From a virus (lineage: Duplodnaviria; Caudoviricetes): DNA of 64,000 nt. The translations under genes were made by a program, and so were the position numbers. The notes under the pieces are model-generated. The model ran no database searches. It was not told the DNA's origin and was given only the letters and a program-made list of their open reading frames with translations. How positions within the stretch are numbered: position 1 is the first letter of the stretch; every line of letters starts with the position of its first letter. Location: IMG/VR virus record IMGVR_UViG_3300031555_001437, one strand, 5' to 3'. Below, in pieces: positions 342-42,304 of this stretch.

Positions 342-1889
342 CTATAGAAAATTTACTTTAATATCAATGTCGTCTCCCTTTCTTGTCCAAGTTATATATT
401 CAATGATAGTCTTATATAGTTCATTGAGTTCTGGATCTGTCAATTCTTTGTTCTTTTTCTTTTCTCTATACTCTTGGATATAATGTAGCTTTTCATGGTT
501 GGAAACAGATGATGCCTTCTTGAGTTTTAGATTTTCAATGTTAAGTTGATTCTCTAAATCATCCATCTCTTTTAATATTCTATCTTTTGCTGTTCTATAC
601 TCATCAAGTGTATCAACGCCTTCGTCGTAGGCAATACGTGCTCTTTTTAGTGCGGCATCTTTTTTATTTATTTTATCCATAATGTTTTTAATTTGGAATT
701 GGATAAGGTCTGTAGATTGGTCTTCGCATTTGTCTATCTCTGCTCTAATTTGTGCCTCGTATTCATTTAACTGTTCTTCAATTGCATCTAAAATGTATTG
801 TCCTCCACCTGCTGAGTTGCCACATTTATTTCCTAAATGATCTTGATGCCAGCAAGTTTTCACCATCAGTCTTTTGCCTCTTTTATACTCTAACGTCATG
901 CCGTACCCACATAGTCCACATCTAACTAGGTTTTTTAATGGATTTGCTTCTTTGGCTCTTCTGTTTGGACATATATTATTTTTTTGAACTTGAATTAAAA
1001 TCCTTTCGTGTTCGTCTTGCGTCTTAACTGCTTCATGCCTATTCTCAACAACAGTCCATTGGTCTTTAGGAATACGCTCCCATTTAGGCTTGTTGGGTCT
1101 GTTCTTGTGGCCATCACCTTTTGTTTTGTTGTAAATAATTTTGCCCAAATGAGTCTCGTCAACTAACATTCTTTTTATTGTAACATTGCACCATCTTGCT
1201 CCCTTTGGTGACAAAATCCCCATACCATTTAATGTCCATGCAATTTCGTTTGTACTCTTCTTTTCATTGAGGAAAGAATCAACCATAAATCTATAAATTT
1301 TTAATTTTTGTAAATTTACAACTAGTCCTTTTTCATTGTAATATCTTTTCCCTGTTTCTGGGTCAAACCATTCTTGATACTCATAAGGGAATGGAGGCGT
1401 GCCATTTGTCCATGCACCTAATTTAGCTCCAACCTTTTTACCCATAGATAGCCTTTGTGTAATTTTTTTATATTCTCTTCTTGCGAATACTGTTTGAAGG
1501 TCTACGGCAAATTCATCGTTATCATCAGATAAATTGTATAGTGAACTTGGAGTTACTATGTAAGTATGCGTTTTCTGAAACACTCTTTTAATTTCATCCC
1601 ACTCGCCAAGAGTGCCTCTTCCCAATCTATCTAAATCTACACAAACAACTGCGTCATACATATTATCAGATATGTCTTTTAATAACTGCTGCATTACTGG
1701 TCTTGCATATAAAGACTCTCCAGTTTCTATTTCTTCATACGCTACATAGACCCACCCTCTGCGATTACACAGCTCTTCCAACACGGTTTTGTGCTTGATA
1801 AGATCTTCTGTAGACTCTCCTCTAGATTTTCTTAGGTATTCTGCTACGTATTTAATAATAACCTCGTTGTATCCAACTCTCATTTCCAA
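342..1889 (-). CDS. Large serine recombinase (phage integrase)
   Basis: N-terminal resolvase motifs YLRKS and DLDRLGRG, recombinase domain, CGLCG...C zinc ribbon, C-terminal coiled coil. Confidence 0.93.
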   Translation of the reverse strand: MEMRVGYNEVIIKYVAEYLRKSRGESTEDLIKHKTVLEELCNRRGWVYVAYEEIETGESLYARPVMQQLLKDISDNMYDAVVCVDLDRLGRGTLGEWDEIKRVFQKTHTYIVTPSSLYNLSDDNDEFAVDLQTVFARREYKKITQRLSMGKKVGAKLGAWTNGTPPFPYEYQEWFDPETGKRYYNEKGLVVNLQKLKIYRFMVDSFLNEKKSTNEIAWTLNGMGILSPKGARWCNVTIKRMLVDETHLGKIIYNKTKGDGHKNRPNKPKWERIPKDQWTVVENRHEAVKTQDEHERILIQVQKNNICPNRRAKEANPLKNLVRCGLCGYGMTLEYKRGKRLMVKTCWHQDHLGNKCGNSAGGGQYILDAIEEQLNEYEAQIRAEIDKCEDQSTDLIQFQIKNIMDKINKKDAALKRARIAYDEGVDTLDEYRTAKDRILKEMDDLENQLNIENLKLKKASSVSNHEKLHYIQEYREKKKNKELTDPELNELYKTIIEYITWTRKGDDIDIKVNFL

Positions 1890-12586: not shown

Positions 12587-12589
12587 ATG

Positions 12590-13270
12590 TTGAATGGTGA
12601 TTTTTAACTATTTCTAGAGGTCAACCACCTTAACCTTGTTGTCTGCGCCAACAGACAACGAAAGGACTTTATATGACGAACATTGACGCGCCCAACAACC
12701 GCTAATGATAAGTAGCGATACGGTATTTTTAGATGCTCCGCAGCCTCAAATAATGTGAACCCGACCTTTTATGTGTCGTATATCGGGTAACGACTATCCC
12801 TGTTGTTGGCTTTTGCCCTTGTCGGGCTAACTTGTAGTTCAATATGGTTCACCGCTCCATATCAGTTCTCTTATGAACTTCTCAATCTGCGACTTTCATC
12901 TCATATTTATTACCCGCATTCGATGTTGTCTGTTCTTATGAATGATTGAGTTCTGCACTTTCAACCGCCAGTCGTTTGCGGTTTACGCTACTTTTAAAGC
13001 CGTGCGATTGCAACATACTTGTCTAACGTTGGGCCGTTCATCTCACTCCGTTACCACAGCTCTTATCACCTATCCGTTTATCAGCTTACGTATTTTTTAA
13101 TTATTAACCACTTCTCACAAAACGGCGTCGGCTTCGTGGCACCCAACTCTTGATTAGGCGCAAGAGAACGCCACTTTGGATGGGTTTTAGGTCTCCAGCC
13201 CGACTTTGAACTTTCTTGTTCTGGCAACCCAAGAGAAGGCTACGGGGAACATCCCCGTTCGACGCCAGGA
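12590..13270 (-). ncRNA. Large (~680 nt) structured ncRNA, GOLLD/ROOL-like candidate
   Basis: ORF-free stretch inside the tRNA cluster with many helices (GGCGTCG/CGACGCC, ACGGGGA/TCCCCGT, GTTGTCTG/CAGACAAC, GGTGGTT/AATCACC) and a pseudoknot. Confidence 0.7.
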
Positions 13271-13273
13271 GCT

Positions 13274-13388
13274 AGTCACTTTTAGATTGGATTCGAACCA
13301 ATGTCTCCAGTTTATCCGACTGGTGTTCTACCTCTAAACTACATCTCTAATTATTTGCAGAGACAACATGATATTGCTGTAAGTGACT
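13274..13388 (-). ncRNA. Circularly permuted tRNA-like RNA closed by an ACAGCAA stem (Y-RNA-like)
   Basis: AGTCACTT-ACAGCAA...TGTCTCT/AGAGATG hairpin, D arm, CCAGT-CGGATAA-ACTGG, ATTGG-TTCGAAT-CCAAT, then AAGTGACT. Confidence 0.75.
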
Positions 13389-13392
13389 ATTA

Positions 13393-13466
13393 TGGCAGGG
13401 GAGGAGAGGATTGAACTCCCAGTCGCGGTTTTGGAGACCGCTGGTTTACCATTAACCGACTCCCCT
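13393..13466 (-). tRNA. tRNA-Trp(CCA)
   Basis: Anticodon arm GCGGT-CTCCAAA-ACCGC; CCA end. Confidence 0.93.
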
Positions 13467-13472
13467 GTGTGA

Positions 13473-13548
13473 TGGTGTGCCCTGGGAGATTTGAACTCCC
13501 GACACCATGATTAAAAGTCATGTGATCTACCATCTGATCTAAGGGCAC
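13473..13548 (-). tRNA. tRNA-Lys(TTT)
   Basis: Anticodon arm CATGA-CTTTTAA-TCATG; CCA end. Confidence 0.93.
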
Positions 13549-13999: not shown

Positions 14000-14818
14000 T
14001 CAATCTTCAATTACTAATACATTTACCTTTTTGCTATACGCAGTACATGCGTCAATCGCAATAACACGTTCATCAACAAACGGCTCGAAAGATTTACTCC
14101 AATCTGCATGGGTCGGCTTCGGAAACTCTTTATACATTAGTTTCAAGTGCGACCAACCCCACGAACAGTGCCAGTGTCCACACACGATTTGCTTTGACGG
14201 CTCATACACATCGTACCGCCATGCAAGTTCCATGCCGTTAAACCATCTTGCGGTATTCCACTCAGACGCGTGAACTTCTCTCCAATTCGGATTATACTGA
14301 TACGTTCTGCCTTTACGATAGTGCGCTGGCATGTCTGTATTTGTCTCACAAGGAATGCTGCCATGGACAAACACATAATGCTCAGTCTCGTAATAATCAA
14401 TACTTGCAGGAATGAGAGTTTTGCAGAAATCAGAGTTTAAAACCTTAGAGACGAACTTATTTCGATTTCTCAGAGCCTCGGTCTCTGTCATGCCGCTAAG
14501 TTGCAGCGCACTGCTCCAAGTGCCGTTGCTGACATGATGAGAATAACCCCAGGCAATAGCATCTGCGTACTTGTCGAAACCATTAAGCATATCAAGCAAC
14601 AAATCTTCGTGATTGCCACGTATGAAAATTAGCTCGTCGCGGTTATACAAGTCCATCATGAAGTCTTGCATCTCCACAGACTCTAGACCCCTGTCAAGAG
14701 CATCGCCACAAATGATTAACTTCTTGGGGTCAGAGTCCGTGAAAAAGCCTTTATCGTCAAGAGCTTGTTTGAACTCACTGTAAAAGGAATGTACGTCTGA
14801 CGTTACATAATATTTCAT
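14000..14818 (-). CDS. Calcineurin-like metallophosphoesterase
   Basis: SDVH, GDALDRG, RGNHED, FVHG and GHWH motifs. Confidence 0.9.
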   Translation of the reverse strand: MKYYVTSDVHSFYSEFKQALDDKGFFTDSDPKKLIICGDALDRGLESVEMQDFMMDLYNRDELIFIRGNHEDLLLDMLNGFDKYADAIAWGYSHHVSNGTWSSALQLSGMTETEALRNRNKFVSKVLNSDFCKTLIPASIDYYETEHYVFVHGSIPCETNTDMPAHYRKGRTYQYNPNWREVHASEWNTARWFNGMELAWRYDVYEPSKQIVCGHWHCSWGWSHLKLMYKEFPKPTHADWSKSFEPFVDERVIAIDACTAYSKKVNVLVIED

Positions 14819-16350
14819 CTAATTGCCTCTTCTACTGCTCTATATCTTTCCGAATTCAGTTGCTCGAGCAAACACTCATACGGGTCAAGTTTACCCGACA
14901 TAACCATCTTCGCAACGTTTACAGAGAAACCACTGACAAGGGCTACTCCCAAATCATTCTGCTTAACAGGAATTGCGCCAGTTCTAGAATTAACATTCCA
15001 GAACACGAGCCTTGGGAGTTGATATCCATGTGCTGCGTATTTTTGAGCGATAGCGTCAAAGAGAGTGGCGGTCGGGCGAGAGCCTCTGCTGGAGTACCAA
15101 CTGGAAGACGTAGCTGGACCCATCGTTGCACATGAATCGAACTCCATGTCCGAAATGACCAGCACATTCGCAGGCATATCCCTCTGAGACATGTTGTTGT
15201 TAATAGCAGTCTGCAAAATCAAATCGAACGTTGCTTCGATATTAGTGTTTGCAACCTCGTTATGTCTACGTGCGATGGCAATCTTCTCTCTCAGAGTAGA
15301 AGCGCCGCTAAAATCAACCAGCTGAGGTCTGCTGCTAAAAGTAATGTACTTATCCTTGAACTCGCCAGAAGATCTCTCTGCGAAGTAAATTGCAAGTGCG
15401 TTAGCAACCTCAAGAGCAGTTACACCAGTGTTGCCGCCAACAGTACACTGCATACTACCTGAACCATCTGCAACTACGATTGTATTACCGCAACCCTGTA
15501 CAGTGTCTGGAAGAGCCTTCCACATAGCCTCGATACCTTTGTCTACACTGCGGCTATAAGCGTAAGAATGAACTAAGTCATGAGGAAACAGAACACTTGC
15601 ATTGATCTTTGCCTCGCCCTTTTCAAGCGCACCAAGATATGCTCTGCGTCTATCCTCGTCGTTGCGTAAGAACGCACCGTTGTAAATCAAGTTTGCACGG
15701 CTAGGAACGGCCTCATAGTCAATATCTCCCCACTGCTTTGCAGACATCTTTCGCTCTACAACATCAATGTAGTTGCGCATCTTAGACAGCATCTTACGAT
15801 ACTCCTTAGAAGACATACCAAGACCGTTGCGAATAATTTTTGCAAGACGCTTGGTTTCTGCGGAAGACGCGTTTTCGGACGGAGCCCATTTGCTACAGAG
15901 GGAAATTGACTCCTTGTTCTTCATCGCTTGCTTGTCTGCTGCAAGCTGTTCACGAATATGGACAATAATATCATCTTTAAGGCTAGTATCAAGCAGACAC
16001 CACAGGTCATCGTATCTGCCATACTCACTTACAAGTCTAATAACTGCCTTGATAATCTCTGGCTTCTCAGTAGCCAGATGCTTCATAACAATTCTGAACA
16101 GGCGTCTCTCGCCAATTCCCTGTCTTGCATCGCGGCAATAGAACAGCCACTTGATTGCGGTTACCTTGTCCTCATAATAAGCATCCATAAACTTGTTGAT
16201 GATTTGCTGCTCAGAAGCGCCTCTTAGAGAGGCCACAGCGAAATTCAAATCGAGCAACTTCTTACCAGTAGTTCGCCACGCTACCGCGCCGTTCTCTGTC
16301 AAAACCTTTTCATTGTTAAGTTCGTTTTTGATTGCGTTCATGAAACTCAT
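14815..16350 (-). CDS. DUF2828-family Ro60/TROVE-like helical protein with C-terminal vWA domain
   Basis: TENGA, RDAR.G.GERR.FR, EYGRYDDL, KWAPS, VPS.A, DGSGSM MIDAS motif, TFS, SDMEFD, FWNV, LVSGFS; RBS before MSFMNA. Confidence 0.85.
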   Translation of the reverse strand: MSFMNAIKNELNNEKVLTENGAVAWRTTGKKLLDLNFAVASLRGASEQQIINKFMDAYYEDKVTAIKWLFYCRDARQGIGERRLFRIVMKHLATEKPEIIKAVIRLVSEYGRYDDLWCLLDTSLKDDIIVHIREQLAADKQAMKNKESISLCSKWAPSENASSAETKRLAKIIRNGLGMSSKEYRKMLSKMRNYIDVVERKMSAKQWGDIDYEAVPSRANLIYNGAFLRNDEDRRRAYLGALEKGEAKINASVLFPHDLVHSYAYSRSVDKGIEAMWKALPDTVQGCGNTIVVADGSGSMQCTVGGNTGVTALEVANALAIYFAERSSGEFKDKYITFSSRPQLVDFSGASTLREKIAIARRHNEVANTNIEATFDLILQTAINNNMSQRDMPANVLVISDMEFDSCATMGPATSSSWYSSRGSRPTATLFDAIAQKYAAHGYQLPRLVFWNVNSRTGAIPVKQNDLGVALVSGFSVNVAKMVMSGKLDPYECLLEQLNSERYRAVEEAIR

Positions 16351-16388
16351 TTTGTTTTCCTCCAAAATTTCATTTATAATAACAATCC

Positions 16389-16744
16389 AAGACACATTAG
16401 GTTATATAGATTAAAAGTCTATTCCATTAAGATTGCTGTATGTGTCTTAAGATATAGTTGACATGCGAGACACCATAATGATATGCATACACGACATTTA
16501 CTGTCATGCAATTTTAAGCATGCCATTCGTCTTCAATATAGAGTGAACGGCAAGTTCCATTTACTATTATTTTCATCATTAAAATTGCTGTCGGTGTCTC
16601 TTTATCGAGATGCTATTAAACTATAAAATCATCATTCTTTAATTTCTTAGTAAATAACATTGCTGTTAGCATCTCTTTTTTAAACAAGGCACAATATAAT
16701 TTCATTCCCAGCAGAAATATGTATTAAGTTGCTGTGTGTGCCTT
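16389..16744 (-). repeat. Array of four stem-ACAGCAA-variable loop-stem small RNA units
   Basis: Units 16389-16448, 16467-16600, 16607-16675 and 16686-16744; each has an 8-9 bp covarying closing stem with ACAGCAA just 3' of the 5' strand. Confidence 0.8.
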
Positions 16745-17044: not shown

Positions 17045-17073
17045 ATTATAACATAATTTACTTAATTTGTCAA
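17045..17073 (-). promoter_or_regulatory. Sigma-A promoter driving the small-RNA / DUF2828 / tRNA island
   Basis: TTGACA-17bp-TATAAT with extended -10 TG; repeat variant ACACGACAGAATGA just downstream. Confidence 0.82.
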
Positions 17074-22865: not shown

Positions 22866-23861
22866 TCATTTTGTCGTGTTGTTCTTTTCCTTGCAAAACT
22901 CTCTGTATTTTCTTGTATACTCATAAGCGCCACCAAAAATATTATTAACTGCAACAGACAGGCGCGGTTCGTGTTTATTGATGACCTCTAACTCGTTTTC
23001 AAAATCCCTACCATAAGGACAACCGCAGCAACCAGTTCTCTTTAATCTGTATTTAGAATAACATTCGCTATGAACTACTCCAAAATGTTTCTCATATTCG
23101 CACTTATCGTTATCGGAATACCAAAACAGCGGTCTATAATTATCTGTCCCATTGTCATTGTTATCAAAACAGTTTTTATATACAGTTTGTCTAAATCCAC
23201 CCTCGGCCCTTCTTACACCAACAATGTTTAGATCATAGTTATTGTTTTTGATTAATTGTATTGCAACTTTCTTCTTTGCGTAATTACAGCATTTATTAGA
23301 AATATAAAAATCGGGAGGATTTGCGATAATAAACTCCTTGAGCCATTTGTTGTATTTGATGTTAAAAGCAACACATGGTCTTTTGTTGCACCACCACTCC
23401 AACGCAGATTTACATTTTGGATATCGTGCATATAAAACATCAAAGTCTTCATCTTCCCATTTAAATCCGTGACGCTGTAGTCTCTCCATATATTCACTTA
23501 CTCTTTTGCTCATAAATGGTTGTCCAAATTGTCTGCACGATGTTGGAATAGACACAATTGGCTTGCACGCTGTAATTTTTATGTCATACCTTTTCTCCAA
23601 AAACTTTAAGTGTTCTTTTGTTGCGTTATACTCTAATCCAGTATCAAACCAAACATATTCTACCTTATTGCTTTTGTCACATCTCCAACAAATATCAAGC
23701 ATCACATCACTATCAGACCCACCCGACACAGAGCATATAATCTTTTTATATTTATCATCATTAATATATGTCCAAGCCTTAATCATATTATCAATAATAA
23801 CATCGTTCTTTGGACATTGCTTAATTGCGTCTTCTACGCCTTCAAATTTCTTTACTTCCAT
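22866..23861 (-). CDS. PAPS reductase-family (PP-loop) Fe-S protein, copy 1
   Basis: SVSGGSDS, DTGLE, CCNYAKK, GVRRAE and RTGCCGCPY. Confidence 0.88.
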   Translation of the reverse strand: MEVKKFEGVEDAIKQCPKNDVIIDNMIKAWTYINDDKYKKIICSVSGGSDSDVMLDICWRCDKSNKVEYVWFDTGLEYNATKEHLKFLEKRYDIKITACKPIVSIPTSCRQFGQPFMSKRVSEYMERLQRHGFKWEDEDFDVLYARYPKCKSALEWWCNKRPCVAFNIKYNKWLKEFIIANPPDFYISNKCCNYAKKKVAIQLIKNNNYDLNIVGVRRAEGGFRQTVYKNCFDNNDNGTDNYRPLFWYSDNDKCEYEKHFGVVHSECYSKYRLKRTGCCGCPYGRDFENELEVINKHEPRLSVAVNNIFGGAYEYTRKYREFCKEKNNTTK

Positions 23862-23870
23862 ATTTATACC

Positions 23871-24947
23871 TCATCTTAACAAAGATATTGTTTGTACTAA
23901 TGCGTCAACAACGAAATCAACTTCCTCTTTCGTGTTATTGTCAAACGTAAATCTGATCACATTGTTTTCCTTGATCCCAATCGCTCTAAGAACATGAGAC
24001 CCGCTTGCATTGTTGCTATTACACGCAGAGCCAGACGACACACATATGCCTCGTTGCGCCAACATCAATACAAGCGTTTCTCCGTTGATACCATCAAAAT
24101 AAATTGACGCATTATTTTTCAATCTATTATCATCGCAGGCACACCCAACCAACGAACAACCACTAATTGATGATAAAACTTTATTCACAAAACAATCTCT
24201 GCATTCTGCTGTTGGGTATTCGATGGTTGCAATGGCTGCACTGAGACCAGCAATATATGGAACGTTTTCTGTTCCACCTCTACGCGCATTCTCTTGCGAC
24301 CCATAAATCAGAGGAGGCAGCTTTATCCCACGCTTTACATACAGCACACCAATGCCCTTTGGAGCTCCAAACTTTTGCCCACTGAAAGACATCATATCGA
24401 CGCCTTTTACATTAATTTTTCTATCTGGAATAATCTGTGTTGCGTCAGTATGCAAAATGCATTTGTACGAATGCACTAATCTGCTGATCTCAGCGATGTT
24501 TTGGATTGTTCCAATTTCATTATTCGCATATTGAATGCTTACTAAAGACGGTTGACTTTCTAATGCCCAACTCAATTCTTGCATGTTAACAAACCCATTA
24601 CTGTCTACGCCGATGATGGTTGTTCTGTCGCTATATGCCTCTGCAATGTTCATGATCGACTTGTGCTCAATTGATGTGGTAACAAGACGATGATCACTTT
24701 CTTTTAAATAACCACAGATTGCATGGCTATTTGCTTCACACGCTCCAGATGTAAAAATAATTTCAGACGGATGAGCCCCAATAAACTTCGCCACAGTTTT
24801 TCTGCCGAAATCAAGGATGTTTTTTGCATTACGGCCTAAAGGATGCAGAGAAGACGGATTTCCCCAGTGCTCTGTTAGGCACTTGGTTATTTCCTCTACG
24901 ACTTCTTTCTTGGGCTTGGTCGTAGCCGCATTGTCCATGTATATCAT
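23871..24947 (-). CDS. iscS: Cysteine desulfurase (IscS/NifS family)
   Basis: YMDNAATT, GNPSS, FTSGACEAN, NNEIG, SGQKFGAPKG and SSGSACNS. Confidence 0.93.
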   Translation of the reverse strand: MIYMDNAATTKPKKEVVEEITKCLTEHWGNPSSLHPLGRNAKNILDFGRKTVAKFIGAHPSEIIFTSGACEANSHAICGYLKESDHRLVTTSIEHKSIMNIAEAYSDRTTIIGVDSNGFVNMQELSWALESQPSLVSIQYANNEIGTIQNIAEISRLVHSYKCILHTDATQIIPDRKINVKGVDMMSFSGQKFGAPKGIGVLYVKRGIKLPPLIYGSQENARRGGTENVPYIAGLSAAIATIEYPTAECRDCFVNKVLSSISGCSLVGCACDDNRLKNNASIYFDGINGETLVLMLAQRGICVSSGSACNSNNASGSHVLRAIGIKENNVIRFTFDNNTKEEVDFVVDALVQTISLLR

Positions 24948-25984
24948 CCCTTGGTCTCCTTTTTCTGTTTCTTCTTTTCGTCGCGAAAAGCCCTATATCT
25001 TCTTGTGTAATCGTATGCGTCCTTAAAAATATTGCTAATAGCCTTATAAAGCTTAGGTTCATATTTTTCAATCGCTAGCAGATCTATTTCGAACCGAGCA
25101 TTAAAGGGGCAGCCAGCACATCCAGTTCTCAAAAAACCATAATCTGTATAACATCTACTATGCTCTACTTTATAAAACTCTTCATATTCCAATCTGTCTT
25201 GATTGGTGAACCAATATATCGGATAAAAATCATCATATGCCTTTGATTTGTCAGAGCTATCTGATGTATTGTCCGAAAAACAAGACTTAATAGCTGTTGC
25301 TCTGACTCCACCCTCGGCTTTTCTCAATCCTAAGCACTTTAAATCTATGTGAGACTCTTTTTCATATAATTTACTGGGGTTCTTTTTCGCTCCTTCGCAG
25401 CATCTTGGAGAAACCAAAAAGGTGGGAGGGTTTGCGATCATAAATTCTTTCAAAAACGCCATGTGGTTAATGTTGTAGTCTGGCTTAGTATTACACCACC
25501 ATTTTAAAGCGCTTTTACAATGCGGATACTTGGCAACCAACTCTTCATAACTCTTTGGACCATCGTTTGCAAAATCAAAATTATTGTTTTGTAACGTTCG
25601 TATTTTACCAGACGCATCTTTACTTAAAAACGGAATGCCATACTGTCTACATCCAAGAGGGACAGGCACCGACGATCTCAATCTTTTAATTGATATATGG
25701 TATTTCTCTTCAAGATACGTAAGATGGTCTTTGGTTGCTTGGTACTCGATTCCAGTGTCAAAAAACACATACTCAATTTTATTGTCCTTATCCACTCTCC
25801 ATAACACATCCAGCATCACGTCACTATCGGCTCCACCAGAGACAGAGCAGAAAACTTTCTTATATTTATCGTCATTAATTACGCTGTATGCTTTTATCAA
25901 ACTTTCTTTTATTGTTTTATTTTGAGGGCAATTCTCAAGCAAATCCGTCAGATCTGACACCCTCTTTATTTCTTGCGCGCTCAT
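24944..25984 (-). CDS. PAPS reductase-family (PP-loop) Fe-S protein, copy 2
   Basis: SVSGGADS, DTGIE, CCEGAKK, GLRKAE and RTGCAGCPF; paralog of 22866-23861. Confidence 0.88.
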   Translation of the reverse strand: MSAQEIKRVSDLTDLLENCPQNKTIKESLIKAYSVINDDKYKKVFCSVSGGADSDVMLDVLWRVDKDNKIEYVFFDTGIEYQATKDHLTYLEEKYHISIKRLRSSVPVPLGCRQYGIPFLSKDASGKIRTLQNNNFDFANDGPKSYEELVAKYPHCKSALKWWCNTKPDYNINHMAFLKEFMIANPPTFLVSPRCCEGAKKNPSKLYEKESHIDLKCLGLRKAEGGVRATAIKSCFSDNTSDSSDKSKAYDDFYPIYWFTNQDRLEYEEFYKVEHSRCYTDYGFLRTGCAGCPFNARFEIDLLAIEKYEPKLYKAISNIFKDAYDYTRRYRAFRDEKKKQKKETKG

Positions 25985-32415: not shown

Positions 32416-33375
32416 TTAATCATTTTGTTGTGTGGCGAGTTGTGCGAGGGCTTGTTTTTCGGTGATCAGGCCGAGTGTGATAGCTCCAGGGATGATGGTG
32501 CCATCCTTGAGGGTTTGATTGTAAAGATAATGCCAAATGAAGCCGCCAGCCGTTTTGTGTTTCCCTTGACAGCATCTAATTATTCCTGATTTTAAAATAT
32601 CAAGTGCATCCGATGCTCCTTGTATCCAACTCCAAACCTTAATTAATTCATCGTTACCAGTGCATTGCACAATAGGCTTAGATAGTTTTAATCGATTATT
32701 TTCTTTCCATTCTGGCGTAGCGTTTCTGGCTGCAATTGCCTCTCTTTGCTTTTGCTTCGCCTCCTCTGTGTGCCGATGGTTGTGAAATCCTGCAGTTTCT
32801 TTTTGATTGGCAAGGCTCATATTCTTTCTGTGTTCATCTGTAAAAACCATTCCAACGTGAGACCTAGACATTTTTTCTTTAGTTTCTTCGCTATGATGTT
32901 TACCTTTCATAGTGCCAGGTTTACCAATTAAACTATTGCTGATTTTCTCCTTGTGCTCAACAGATAATACCTTCCCTCTATGTGCGTTGCCAATCTTATC
33001 TCTAGTTTCTTGCTTGACTTCTCTACCAGCAGACCCGTCTCCGCCGTCAGTTTCATTATACCCATATGCTGGTTTTTTGTATCTTCTGCAATTTGTTTTA
33101 AATAAGGCAATTAACATTTTTTCCATATGTTTTGCTTCGTCGTGGTCTAAATTAACAGCCCAAATAATATGCTCAAAACCATCCCATCCGTATTTTTGAA
33201 TAGCATTATAAAAAACTGGTTGAGAATTCTCTTGATATTTTTTACCATTTGCGCCCCATCGATTGAACGGATTACCCTTAGCAATTCCTATATATGCCTT
33301 ATTATTCGTAATACATTTGTGTATATAGATACTCCACTTGTTTTTGTTAAAAACTATATTTTCAATTGCATTCAT
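32416..33375 (-). CDS. GIY-YIG homing endonuclease with NUMOD3 repeats
   Basis: SIY...YIG, GYN.T.GGDG, repeated H.EE.K.K.S, C-terminal helix-turn-helix-like I..CC.GK.KTAGGF.W. Confidence 0.88.
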   Translation of the reverse strand: MNAIENIVFNKNKWSIYIHKCITNNKAYIGIAKGNPFNRWGANGKKYQENSQPVFYNAIQKYGWDGFEHIIWAVNLDHDEAKHMEKMLIALFKTNCRRYKKPAYGYNETDGGDGSAGREVKQETRDKIGNAHRGKVLSVEHKEKISNSLIGKPGTMKGKHHSEETKEKMSRSHVGMVFTDEHRKNMSLANQKETAGFHNHRHTEEAKQKQREAIAARNATPEWKENNRLKLSKPIVQCTGNDELIKVWSWIQGASDALDILKSGIIRCCQGKHKTAGGFIWHYLYNQTLKDGTIIPGAITLGLITEKQALAQLATQQND

Positions 33376-40300: not shown

Positions 40301-41251
40301 TCATAAATACCTCCTAAATTTGTCAAGAACAGTTGATGCTGAATGTTCTCCCATAAATCCAAACCTATAACAAACTCTTCTACCGCTGTCTGTGTTTAGA
40401 TACTCGCGCAAGTCATCTATTCCCTTCTCTTGCATCTTTTTGTGCAATTCGTGCCACAGACCACTTGCGTTGATGCTCTTTGGCGTCATTTTAATGCCGA
40501 GATATTCGCTTATAATTGTAACTCTTCTGTGGAGCCATCTCATGCGGCGTCGGCGATCGTCTGCGTTATTGATATTGTCGTTTTCATTGATAGTATTGCC
40601 GCGAATTTTATAAATGCCGCCAGTAGAAACCACGATGACTGTGCTCTCATCATTATAAGATATCAGAGCATCCTCTTCAAATGCCTTCCTCACTATCTCG
40701 TAATCCCTATCAGACAACACGATCATCTTGCCAGTCCTGAAATATATCTTATTTTCCTTTGTGCTTAATTGGTCTGAGGTTAAAAATGTAATTTCTTTGA
40801 GGTTTTCGCCTCCCACTCCCATAAACAACAAACTCAATATTGCTTTATCTGTGTAGTTCAATAAATCATCCTGCATAGTTTGCAGCTGCTCTTTGGTTAT
40901 CAACATTTGCTTTACAGCATCTGCGTCCACGCATCGATTGAGGTCATCTCTTGTAACAGCTTCATATGCGTTATCCAGAGATTTGCCTTGCGTATGCAAA
41001 AACCAGCGTGATGCGTGCTTTAATGTTAAGTTCCAATTTTGCAGTGTGCGGTTTGATTTTACTTTTGCGTCAGTGTACATTTGTAATATCTCTTCTTTTG
41101 TGAACTCATAGAACACTTTCCCAAATCTTTTCTCGTTACCAAGTGCTCTATTGAGAACTGCGTTTACCATAGTTGTCGAAACCACTCTACTTCTAAAATA
41201 CTCTTTTAAAAACTCCTCTTTTTGAGATTCCAATGTATACACATAACTCAC
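40301..41251 (-). CDS. MrpR/YopR-like lysogeny repressor (degenerate tyrosine-recombinase fold)
   Basis: E.RFGK...EFT.EEI, LLN.TDKAIL.LLF.G..G..L.EI..L and T.KSI..SG; recombinase catalytic residues not evident. Confidence 0.7.
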   Translation of the reverse strand: MSYVYTLESQKEEFLKEYFRSRVVSTTMVNAVLNRALGNEKRFGKVFYEFTKEEILQMYTDAKVKSNRTLQNWNLTLKHASRWFLHTQGKSLDNAYEAVTRDDLNRCVDADAVKQMLITKEQLQTMQDDLLNYTDKAILSLLFMGVGGENLKEITFLTSDQLSTKENKIYFRTGKMIVLSDRDYEIVRKAFEEDALISYNDESTVIVVSTGGIYKIRGNTINENDNINNADDRRRRMRWLHRRVTIISEYLGIKMTPKSINASGLWHELHKKMQEKGIDDLREYLNTDSGRRVCYRFGFMGEHSASTVLDKFRRYL

Positions 41252-41314: not shown

Positions 41315-42304
41315 TTAAACTAAACCATCAAGTACGTTCAAGACTTTCTCTTCGTCTTCTTTGAATACGTCAATATATCTCATTGTGATAGAAATGTTTG
41401 AATGCCCCAACTGCTTTGCGATTGCCTTAACTGGGAGCCCCGCCTTTGCCAATTGGCATGCTGCGCTTGATCTTAGCTTGTGGAAAGTGATGTGCTTTCC
41501 GAGGCCAATTTCATCACAGTACTTTGCGAGCATTTCATTAAGAGCATCTGGAGAAATTCGGTTCTTCTGTCTTGATAAGAATAATGCGTTTGACGCAACG
41601 TTACCATATTCCTTGTTTCTAACCTGTATCCAATATTGCAGCATTTTCTTAACGTTGGCCCCGATTGCAATACTACGAACCTTTTGACGTTTCTCAATAA
41701 CATTGATTATGCCGTTGTCAAAGTCAATGTCCTGAATGTTTAGATTAATCATGGCAGAAATTCTAAGTCCAGTTGCAAGAGCGAGACTGATGATTGTCTT
41801 GTCTCTTAATCCCATAACTTTATTTGGGTTATTGTCTGTCGCTTTCAGTAATTTATTGATTTCTACCTTTGTCAAAAACGTTACTTGATGTTCTGTGTTG
41901 TTCTTTGGTCTGCTTACTCCAGCAATAGGATTTTCATCTATATATTTTCTAGTTAACAAGAAATTGAAGAAATGATTGAGTGAACTCCATCTTTGCTGTA
42001 AAACATCGTCGCCCATTCTTTTAGTTCCAGATGATGTCTTTTTGGTTTCAAGTGAGATAAAATATCTTTCAATGTCAGTAACTGCAATTGCTTTATAGAA
42101 ATCATTCTTCATATTGTCGCCACATGCAAAATTTACAAAGTGCAAAAGATTGTTAATATACACGTTGATGCTTGTATACGCCTTTCTGTTTGCTCTTAAC
42201 GAAATATAATATTCGTTGATTACTGGAGGCAAATTCTTTAGCTTTGCATCCATCTTTTCATAGAATTGTGTTTCTTTTTCCAAACGACCAGTTAAAGTAC
42301 TCAT
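41315..42304 (-). CDS. Tyrosine recombinase (XerC/D-like)
   Basis: RD...LALATGLRISA, HKLRSS and LGHSNISITMRY: catalytic R-H-R-H-Y intact. Confidence 0.92.
   Translation of the reverse strand: MSTLTGRLEKETQFYEKMDAKLKNLPPVINEYYISLRANRKAYTSINVYINNLLHFVNFACGDNMKNDFYKAIAVTDIERYFISLETKKTSSGTKRMGDDVLQQRWSSLNHFFNFLLTRKYIDENPIAGVSRPKNNTEHQVTFLTKVEINKLLKATDNNPNKVMGLRDKTIISLALATGLRISAMINLNIQDIDFDNGIINVIEKRQKVRSIAIGANVKKMLQYWIQVRNKEYGNVASNALFLSRQKNRISPDALNEMLAKYCDEIGLGKHITFHKLRSSAACQLAKAGLPVKAIAKQLGHSNISITMRYIDVFKEDEEKVLNVLDGLV

Follow-up and report, generated by a model that had tools for sequence, protein, structure and literature searches.

What kind of RNA has the body of a tRNA and an acceptor stem that is looped shut, and why should a phage encode it within its tRNA cluster? 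This question is raised by a 117-nt RNA gene (hereafter the element) on the minus strand, positions 13389-13273, of a 64,000-nt stretch of DNA from a large gut phage (IMG/VR record IMGVR_UViG_3300031555_001437); the whole stretch is referred to as the window. Ro60 proteins and their Y RNAs are conserved from bacteria to humans, and we propose, with a probability of roughly 60%, that the element is a Y-RNA-like tRNA mimic that docks on a Ro60-like protein of the phage by means of a "handle", a closing stem plus the motif ACAGCAA, and so presents a tRNA shape. A preliminary description of the site, made from the letters of the DNA, had recognized a tRNA mimic opened between the T arm and the acceptor stem. 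The ties reported here, to a Ro60-like gene 1.4 kb upstream on the same strand and to a large family of RNAs that share the closing stem and ACAGCAA, go beyond that description.

The element is made up of five helices (Table 1). From 5' to 3', the 5' strand of the closing stem is followed by ACAGCAA, linker 1, a strand equivalent to the 3' side of a tRNA acceptor, a cap loop, the acceptor 5' strand, the dinucleotide TA, a D arm, an anticodon-like arm, a 4-nt variable region, a T arm, CTAA, and the 3' strand of the closing stem. The acceptor helix, TGTCTCT/AGAGATG, contains seven pairs, two of which are G-U. Every part that the preliminary description listed on the minus strand was found as described, including the anticodon loop CGGATAA with its G33 and the perfect T arm. 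The closing stem was also present, but the coordinates originally given (13274-13388) fall one pair short at each end of a stem that has nine pairs. The proposed topology, in which the backbone is opened between T arm and acceptor, the acceptor is capped, and the anticodon arm is kept, is supported by both the parse and the comparative fold presented below.

Table 1. Parts of the element, other features of the window, and cargo arrangements of handle RNAs. Positions refer to the window unless the number of another locus (L) is given.
Feature	Position	Strand	Details
Closing stem, 5' strand TAGTCACTT	13381-13389	-	nine perfect pairs with 13273-13281
ACAGCAA tag (handle motif)	13374-13380	-	abuts 5' strand of closing stem
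Linker 1	13366-13373	-	8 nt, A/U-rich; homologues differ in length and sequence
Acceptor 3'-like strand TGTCTCT	13359-13365	-	tRNA positions 66-72; pairs with 13342-13348
Cap loop GCAAATAATT	13349-13358	-	10 nt; sits where discriminator, CCA and spacer belong
Acceptor 5' strand AGAGATG	13342-13348	-	tRNA positions 1-7
D arm	13325-13339	-	stem GTTT/GAAC, loop AGAGGTA with GG; from RF00005 alignment
Anticodon-like arm	13307-13323	-	stem CCAGT/ACTGG, loop CGGATAA, G33
T arm	13286-13302	-	ATTGG / TTCGAAT / CCAAT
Linker 2, CTAA	13282-13285	-	
Closing stem, 3' strand AAGTGACTA	13273-13281	-	exact complement of TAGTCACTT
Metallophosphoesterase gene	14000-14818	-	Pfam Metallophos; overlaps end of Ro60-like gene
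Ro60-like gene	14815-16395	-	526 amino acids; DUF2828 and DUF7788/vWA (Pfam)
Four tandem handle RNAs	16744-16686, 16675-16607, 16600-16467, 16450-16387	-	just upstream of Ro60-like gene
Two full tRNA-like genes	17002-16885, 16876-16753	-	RF00005, 47.9 and 45.7 bits
Promoter	17045-17073	-	sigma-70-type consensus, 12/12, with TG; precedes RNA array
Band-7 gene	18750-17782	-	
CCA-adding enzyme (tRNA nucleotidyltransferase)	31004-29664	-	
RlaP-type "RNA repair" nucleotidyltransferase	32022-30994	-	adjoins CCA-adding enzyme
Cargo: anticodon stem-loop only			
Cargo: tRNA-like without acceptor			
Cargo: whole tRNA-like body on stalk	L001 6697-6830		
Cargo: YrlA order	L078 3975-4099, L048 2875-3020		T arm, capped acceptor, D arm
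Cargo: E-type (the element)			

The resemblance to tRNA was assessed with the Rfam tRNA model (RF00005), which matched 13342-13285, the span from the last acceptor base through the end of the T arm, at 44.8 bits (gathering score 29), covering only model positions 7-64 of 71; the E-value was 2.7e-6 for the whole window and 2e-8 in a 481-nt search (13000-13480). Of the nucleotides involved in tRNA tertiary structure, U8, A14, a D-loop GG, and the T loop TTCGAAT are present in the element. Its acceptor is not formed by the ends of the molecule and bears no free N73-CCA: the CTAAAAG that follows the T arm cannot pair with positions 1-7, and the complement of the acceptor 5' strand lies upstream in the element, joined to it by the cap loop. 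The resulting order of acceptor 3' strand, N-CCA-like cap, and acceptor 5' strand is that of a permuted tRNA gene. The anticodon loop, with G33, also departs from the 7-nt loop with U33 and a conserved anticodon that is expected of a tRNA. ARAGORN called seven window tRNAs and, as the preliminary description had anticipated, passed over the element, which starts 3 nt past the CCA of a tRNA-Trp gene, within a cluster of minus-strand tRNAs. A search for a parent of the tRNA body among the seven window tRNAs gave no clear candidate, at most 40 of 64 positions being identical to any of them. Permissive Rfam searches of the element and the 740 nt downstream returned no ribozyme, YrlA, ROOL, GOLLD, or other family.

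A comparative fold was needed because the single-sequence minimum-free-energy fold misses the cloverleaf (z = -2.4 only). The element has no close DNA match among cultured phages, and its sole distant DNA match is a 59-nt match to the tRNA core in a huge uncultured phage. A covariance model built from the element and three relatives identified nine full-length copies on different phage contigs with scores of 98-133 bits (the window, L004, L005, L001, L087, L089, L090, L091, and L109). We refer to the arrangement of the element, a tRNA body with an anticodon arm and with the handle between the T arm and the acceptor 3' strand, as E-type. This arrangement is rare and was seen in nine contigs, all from closer relatives of the window phage; a pattern scan for E-type copies yielded only two already known ones from IMG/VR and one new one from the metagenome collection.

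In the alignment fitted to the covariance model, 91.6% of cells pair, versus 35-42% when the partners are slid by 1-3 columns, and 16 pairs have changed on both sides, versus 3-7 in the slid controls. Because this alignment was fitted to the proposed structure, a plain MAFFT alignment of the nine copies was also folded with RNAalifold, which gave the same five helices with compensatory double changes in 15 of 29 pairs, five of them among the seven pairs of the capped acceptor. The model-fitted alignment mis-registers two inner pairs of the closing stem and shifts two acceptor rows, and the helices were re-parsed by anchors. In the anchor-based parse, the capped acceptor helix is paired at 7/7 positions in 8/8 sequences (examples being TGTCTCT/AGAGATG, TATTGGC/GCCAGTG, TGTCACA/TGTGATG, TGTAGCA/TGCTATG, and TGAAGCA/TGCTTTG), and three pair types occur at five of its seven positions. 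Of the nine closing-stem positions, 8-9 are paired in the homologues, and pairs 1, 4, and 8 covary. The preliminary description had made its reading depend on compensatory changes in exactly these two helices, and both helices contain them. Covariation extends to pairs 2 and 3 of the D stem and to the Levitt pair 15:48, which alternates between G:C and A:U, and the anticodon-like stem keeps 5/5 pairs, four of them varying; U8, the D-loop GG, and the T loop are likewise preserved. The tag is invariant in eight of the nine E-type homologues and reads GCAGCAA in the ninth; no pairing between linkers 1 and 2 is consistent across them. The failure of tRNA finders and the location in a tRNA cluster might suggest a decayed tRNA pseudogene beside a chance inverted repeat, but this explanation is scarcely credible given nine homologues with compensatory changes in all helices, including two that no tRNA has, and a tag that does not vary. 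Among these homologues the anticodon loop has 6, 7, or 8 nt, differs in sequence, and mostly lacks U33; it is therefore not a decoding anticodon.

The closing stem and the tag are not confined to E-type RNAs. We define the handle as a stem formed by the two ends of an RNA together with single-stranded ACAGCAA following its 5' strand. In the window as a whole, ACAGCAA is not enriched (16 copies versus 14 expected). Five copies are non-coding, namely that of the element and four in tandem (16744-16387), and each of them abuts a strand of 8-11 bp whose complement lies 59-134 nt downstream; copies inside window genes never reach more than seven Watson-Crick pairs. The survey was extended to 84 loci, consisting of 83 fetched through the neighbouring protein and the window region. 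Here ACAGCAA occurs 603 times on the gene strand versus 38 times on the other, and copies with a stem of at least seven Watson-Crick pairs number 229 on the gene strand versus one on the other. These loci contain 168 distinct handle RNAs with stems of 7-13 bp. The stem sequences diverge between copies and pairing is retained. Because the signature is strand-biased, linked to a stem, and kept in pairing despite sequence change, we regard the closing stem plus ACAGCAA as a reusable module. No description of the ACAGCAA handle or of handle RNAs was found in the literature searched, coverage of which was incomplete, so that an earlier description may exist.

The protein encoded upstream of the element carries DGSGS as its MIDAS (metal ion-dependent adhesion site) motif. 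Its open reading frame (ORF) also matches PHROG 850, annotated as "RNA-binding protein", and has no NCBIfam match. An AlphaFold model of the protein (predicted local distance difference test score, pLDDT, 65) was compared with the PDB using Foldseek. The top 13 matches are all full-length Ro60/TROVE proteins (E from 6e-9 to 6e-5), including those of Thermus phage phiLo, Deinococcus (Rsr), Xenopus, and human, with the match extending over the full length; plain vWA domains follow. The DUF2828/vWA protein is thus predicted to have, and likely has, the Ro60 fold.

This protein family is represented in 706 cultured phage records, which include Felix O1-like coliphages, Listeria P100, and Enterococcus, Bacillus, and Mycobacterium phages. 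Six cultured phages were examined, and in five of them (Bacillus Tsamsa, E. coli adrianh, which is Felix O1-like, Listeria P100plus, Enterococcus EfV12-phi1, and Mycobacterium Wilder) the gene has handle RNAs with stems of 7-8 Watson-Crick pairs no more than about 1.8 kb away. Vibrio phage nt-1, the sixth, has weaker candidates only, one of 41 nt with a 6-bp stem at the gene start and one of 271 nt with a 7-bp stem about 2.7 kb upstream. The stem and ACAGCAA signature therefore provides candidate RNA partners of the Ro60-like protein in at least five cultured phages. In a reverse test, viral contigs were scanned for the handle pattern and the protein was ignored. The gene was present in the returned short locus for 11 of 36 matches with the closing stem, versus 3 of 84 without it. 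Five whole contigs had handle RNAs and no gene in the locus; four of these encode the gene elsewhere, and the fifth contig is about 80% complete.

In Wilder (KX580962), an annotated tRNA-Asn lies inside a handle RNA (L231 5527-5648) with the stem TGGACTCC/GGAGTCCA and ACAGCAA. The order of its parts is anticodon arm, T arm, capped acceptor, and D arm, from which it is probably not an ordinary tRNA. In the array of EfV12-phi1, the Rfam YrlA model scores 34 bits on one handle RNA and 45 bits beside another, the gathering score being 69. The gene bas63_0130 of the Felix O1-like coliphage Bas63 (Escherichia phage JohannRWettstein, MZ501086) and the DNA that follows are 96.5% identical to the gene and handle region of adrianh, and handle RNAs are found at L232 2221-2278 and 2763-2888. 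The latter has 126 nt, carries tRNA-like cargo, and overlaps the hypothetical coding sequence bas63_0137 on the opposite strand. Some of the "tRNA" and "hypothetical protein" annotations in these phages are accordingly wrong.

Handle RNAs differ in what they carry. Their typical length is 56-67 nt, and a canonical anticodon stem-loop (5-bp stem and 7-nt loop Y-U-NNN-R-N) was identified in 58 of 168, versus about four in shuffled interiors; a T arm is present in 24 of 168. The anticodons most commonly displayed are UUU (16), UGG (9), UGA (9), and GUU (6), and most are of the U34 or G34 type. The handle RNA just before the start codon of the Ro60-like gene (16387-16450, minus strand) displays a bare tRNA-Lys(UUU) anticodon stem-loop, ATAGA-CTTTTAA-TCTAT. 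The arrangements of larger cargo are given in Table 1. In the two full tRNA-like genes of the window, the acceptor, D, and T arms are intact and the anticodon arm holds an insert of 57-58 nt, composed of a hairpin and then AC(U/C)GCAAUUUU, that is, AC(U/C)GCAA, which is the handle in hairpin form. The same insert arrangement was seen in relatives, for example at L001 4242-4371, 4384-4511, and 4523-4640. The handle is thus joined to tRNA bodies in at least three different places, a distribution more in keeping with a modular tag for protein binding than with a signal for processing. It occurs between T arm and acceptor, in place of the anticodon loop, and at free RNA ends, which argues for handle and tRNA shape being separable modules; the element combines a full tRNA body with the handle at a third attachment position.

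Bacterial and phage Ro60 proteins bind Y RNAs that are encoded beside the gene and on the same strand (PMC4201824, PMC12135203). By the broad definition of a Y RNA, the element has a terminal stem, a conserved motif, and a variable inner module, and there are several such RNAs by the gene. YrlA RNAs (RF02553), which adjoin Ro60 genes in 254 bacteria and 22 phages (Chen et al. 2014, PMC4201824), possess a stem that joins their two ends, a 5'-proximal GNCGAAN0-1G motif believed to contact Ro60, and a tRNA-like T arm, D arm, and capped acceptor, with the stem occupying the place of the anticodon stem (PMC4201824). YrlA and the element are alike in lying on the same strand as a Ro60-type gene and within a few kb of it, often in several copies, in having a terminal stem formed by the ends and, on the 5' side of this stem, a short purine-rich motif that is conserved, and in their tRNA-like T arm, D arm, and loop-capped acceptor. 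They differ in that the terminal stem of YrlA replaces the anticodon stem, whereas the element keeps the anticodon arm and has its stem between the T arm and the acceptor 3' strand. The motifs are GNCGAAN0-1G and ACAGCAA, respectively, and the proposed partner of the element is of the DUF2828 type rather than a TROVE-annotated Ro60, as for YrlA. The Rfam YrlA model, for which membership requires at least 69 bits, had no match in 13000-13480 at E up to 10. Because it departs from YrlA in stem placement, motif, and covariance-model score, the element is not classed as YrlA, and the contrast with YrlA topology drawn in the first description of the site holds.

Two other Y RNAs bear comparison. 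Yrn1 of Deinococcus radiodurans has T- and D-like arms and retains what may be an anticodon arm, its stem 5 bp long and its non-canonical loop 6 nt (PMC4201824); its D arm is doubtful, however, and its Ro-binding helix is of the metazoan type, unlike that of the element. The Ro60 of Thermus phage phiLo binds the phage-encoded Yrl1 and Yrl2, whose genes are placed beside its own (PMC12135203; PDB 9KOP, 9L5Y). The phiLo ring is the best structural match of the window protein model; its RNAs were selected for a bulged CGAA motif, without being described as mimics of tRNA, and binding has been demonstrated for phiLo, whereas for the element it is proposed. Taken with these systems, the element is most likely a Y-like RNA of a distinct class that accompanies the DUF2828 branch of Ro60-like proteins.

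In the Y-RNA-like reading, the handle would dock on the DUF2828/vWA Ro60-like protein as the terminal stem and 5' motif of a Y RNA dock on Ro60. The cargo would be a complete L-shaped tRNA body in which a 7-bp acceptor stacks with the T arm and both a GG-containing D arm and an anticodon-like arm are present. A loop closes its acceptor end, and the handle is attached at the break in its backbone that separates the T arm from the acceptor 3' strand. Such a cargo may show the tRNA shape to RNase P, to the CCA-adding enzyme of the phage, to modification enzymes, or to host tRNA-targeting nucleases, and it may tether or gate the Ro60-like ring as part of a phage kit for tRNA maintenance and anti-defence.

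Several points weigh against this proposal. The rarity of the E-type arrangement may mean that it is a lineage-specific variant without a role of its own. ACAGCAA differs from the known Ro60-binding motifs (GGUCCGA or GNCGAAN0-1G). The Ro60-like protein has no sequence-level match to solved Ro60 structures, and its model is of only moderate quality, for which reason its fold is held to be likely and short of proven. Most of the loci were gathered via the protein, which biases the linkage, and the reverse test was small, with loci unevenly cropped. Finally, it is from structure, covariation, the common handle, genomic linkage, and the predicted Ro60-like fold that we infer the expression, processing, protein binding, and biological role of the element and the handle RNAs.

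The cap loop suggests how the acceptor could be opened. In six of nine E-type copies it starts with GCCA or TCCA, followed by a U-rich spacer of 3-5 nt; the exceptions are the window (GCAA), L004 (TTCA), and L005 (GTCA). An N-CCA plus spacer resembles the junction between two tandem copies of one tRNA and hints at how the permutation may have arisen. Circularly permuted tRNA genes occur in Cyanidioschyzon merolae and some archaea, where cutting at a bulge-helix-bulge, ligation into a circle, and processing by RNases P and Z produce a functional tRNA. Splicing machinery of the bulge-helix-bulge type is not known in bacteria. As in these genes, the acceptor 3' strand of the element precedes the 5' strand, from which a short spacer separates it, and most homologues have N-CCA there; the differences are that only 7 nt are permuted and no anticodon is conserved.

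A bacterial precedent for such opening is the YrlA RNA of M. smegmatis, whose acceptor is also 7 bp long; RNase P cleaves this RNA both in vitro and in vivo, and CCA is added to it (PMC4201824). By analogy, RNase P cleavage of the element at 13349/13348 is plausible, because six of nine homologues have N-CCA and the 7-bp acceptor stacks with a T arm. Cleavage would leave a tRNA body with a nick, whose pieces the acceptor helix and the closing stem would keep together. It would still be no decoder, since the anticodon loops have 6-8 nt, vary, and mostly lack U33. The earlier expectation that the RNA is not aminoacylated as encoded is judged to be right, with the proviso that processing could open the cap where N-CCA is present. 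Going further, RNase P together with 3' trimming or CCA addition might convert the element into a chargeable two-piece tRNA, or a ligated one. The 7-bp acceptor on the T arm as an RNase P determinant, the N-CCA and U-rich spacer reminiscent of a tRNA-tRNA junction, the CCA-adding enzyme of the phage, and the M. smegmatis precedent (PMC4201824) would all be accommodated. This is nevertheless quite improbable, given anticodon loops of 6-8 nt with no conserved anticodon and mostly no U33, a window cap that reads GCAA rather than CCA, and an extra helix at position 65/66, probably in steric conflict with EF-Tu or the ribosome; moreover, a scan of window ORFs up to 42.3 kb found no RNA ligase or splicing endonuclease. 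RNase P opening fits the Y-RNA-like reading too.

A connection to phage defence is provided by Bas63 gp130, which a preprint reports to be Ro60-like by structure, to be encoded directly before a stretch of tRNA genes, and to counter the Ppl defence; its authors guessed that some of the adjacent tRNA genes are Y RNAs, and described no RNA, motif, or structure (10.1101/2024.10.10.617714). Bas63 gp130 and the window protein belong to the same DUF2828-type family, and ACAGCAA handle RNAs are present at both loci, although the tRNA-like handle RNA of Bas63 has the order T arm, capped acceptor, D arm, and not that of E-type RNAs. Together, the anti-defence report and the handle RNAs make the mechanism directly testable in E. 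coli K-12. A bolder idea, which we put forward only tentatively and consider doubtful, is that a widespread phage anti-defence particle has handle RNAs as its RNA component and a DUF2828-type Ro60 ring (the Bas63 gp130 family) as its scaffold. In such a particle, E-type RNAs would be opened by RNase P so that the ring bears a nicked tRNA body with a free CCA, either charged or serving as bait for enzymes that target the acceptor end or the anticodon, and sister RNAs would present bare anticodon stem-loops.

The element could instead be a free-standing decoy or sponge for tRNA-targeting defence enzymes (anticodon nucleases or acceptor-end toxins), with a handle that serves stability or processing only and makes no contact with the Ro60-like protein. 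Phages are known to answer anticodon nucleases with RNA-repair systems (PMC7824862), and the window phage has a tRNA-repair kit of CCA-adding enzyme, RlaP nucleotidyltransferase, and phosphoesterase, alongside sister RNAs that display bare anticodon stem-loops of Lys-UUU, Pro-UGG, Ser-UGA, and Asn-GUU. The anticodon loop of the element itself, non-canonical with G33 and variable at 6-8 nt among homologues, would however make poor bait for an anticodon nuclease, and without a protein partner there is no explanation for why handle RNAs in distant phages keep so closely to the Ro60-like gene and to its strand. We therefore view a decoy that acts alone as unlikely; decoy activity as such is compatible with the Y-RNA-like reading.

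Downstream of the element, the stretch up to tRNA-Gln (12587-13272, minus strand) has about 670-680 nt without a minus-strand ORF of at least 50 amino acids. By eye it contains many hairpins, one of them formed by GGCGTCG (13264) and CGACGCC (about 13120). Rfam gave no match to it at E up to 10, nor did blastn reveal conservation among the loci that were fetched. As the element ends 6-9 nt before this long structured non-coding stretch, it might be considered a 5' domain or processing scaffold of the roughly 670-nt ORF-free region, or else a punctuation signal in a polycistronic tRNA transcript; the packing of handle RNAs 6-16 nt apart in the manner of tRNA clusters, and the presence of ornate large RNAs such as ROOL in a like locus of a Listeria phage, could be read in this sense. 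Both versions are very improbable: the downstream region, lacking an Rfam match, is not conserved beside E-type homologues, and punctuation requires neither a full tRNA body with covarying tertiary pairs nor a conserved 7-nt tag.

The remaining features concern the genes around the element. No terminator-like site was identified on the minus strand between the promoter at 17073-17045 and the element, and because the promoter is perfect and no terminator intervenes, we infer that the array, the Ro60-like gene, and the element are co-transcribed. The metallophosphoesterase shows weak matches to the Pnkp phosphatase domain and to RNA-ligase families. The Ro60-like gene recurs with a Band-7/SPFH gene in the window, in Wilder (L231 2122-3081), and in several metagenome loci. 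In Listeria phage P100plus, a gene for an RtcB-type RNA ligase (L229 6842-8053) lies 1.3 kb downstream of the Ro60-like gene, and a ROOL RNA (L229 2459-3010; 86 bits, under the gathering score of 99) occurs in the same type of tRNA/Ro60-like locus. The RlaP-type gene of the window is followed by a GIY-YIG/NUMOD3 homing endonuclease gene (32416-33375). Two PAPS-reductase-like genes flank a class-V aminotransferase gene of the cysteine desulfurase-like kind (22866-25984, minus strand), and thiolation of tRNA or DNA is a possible function. The window also encodes a large serine recombinase (342-1889, minus strand) and two tyrosine recombinases/integrases (40301-41251 and 41315-42304, minus strand), within a gene content that otherwise looks lytic.

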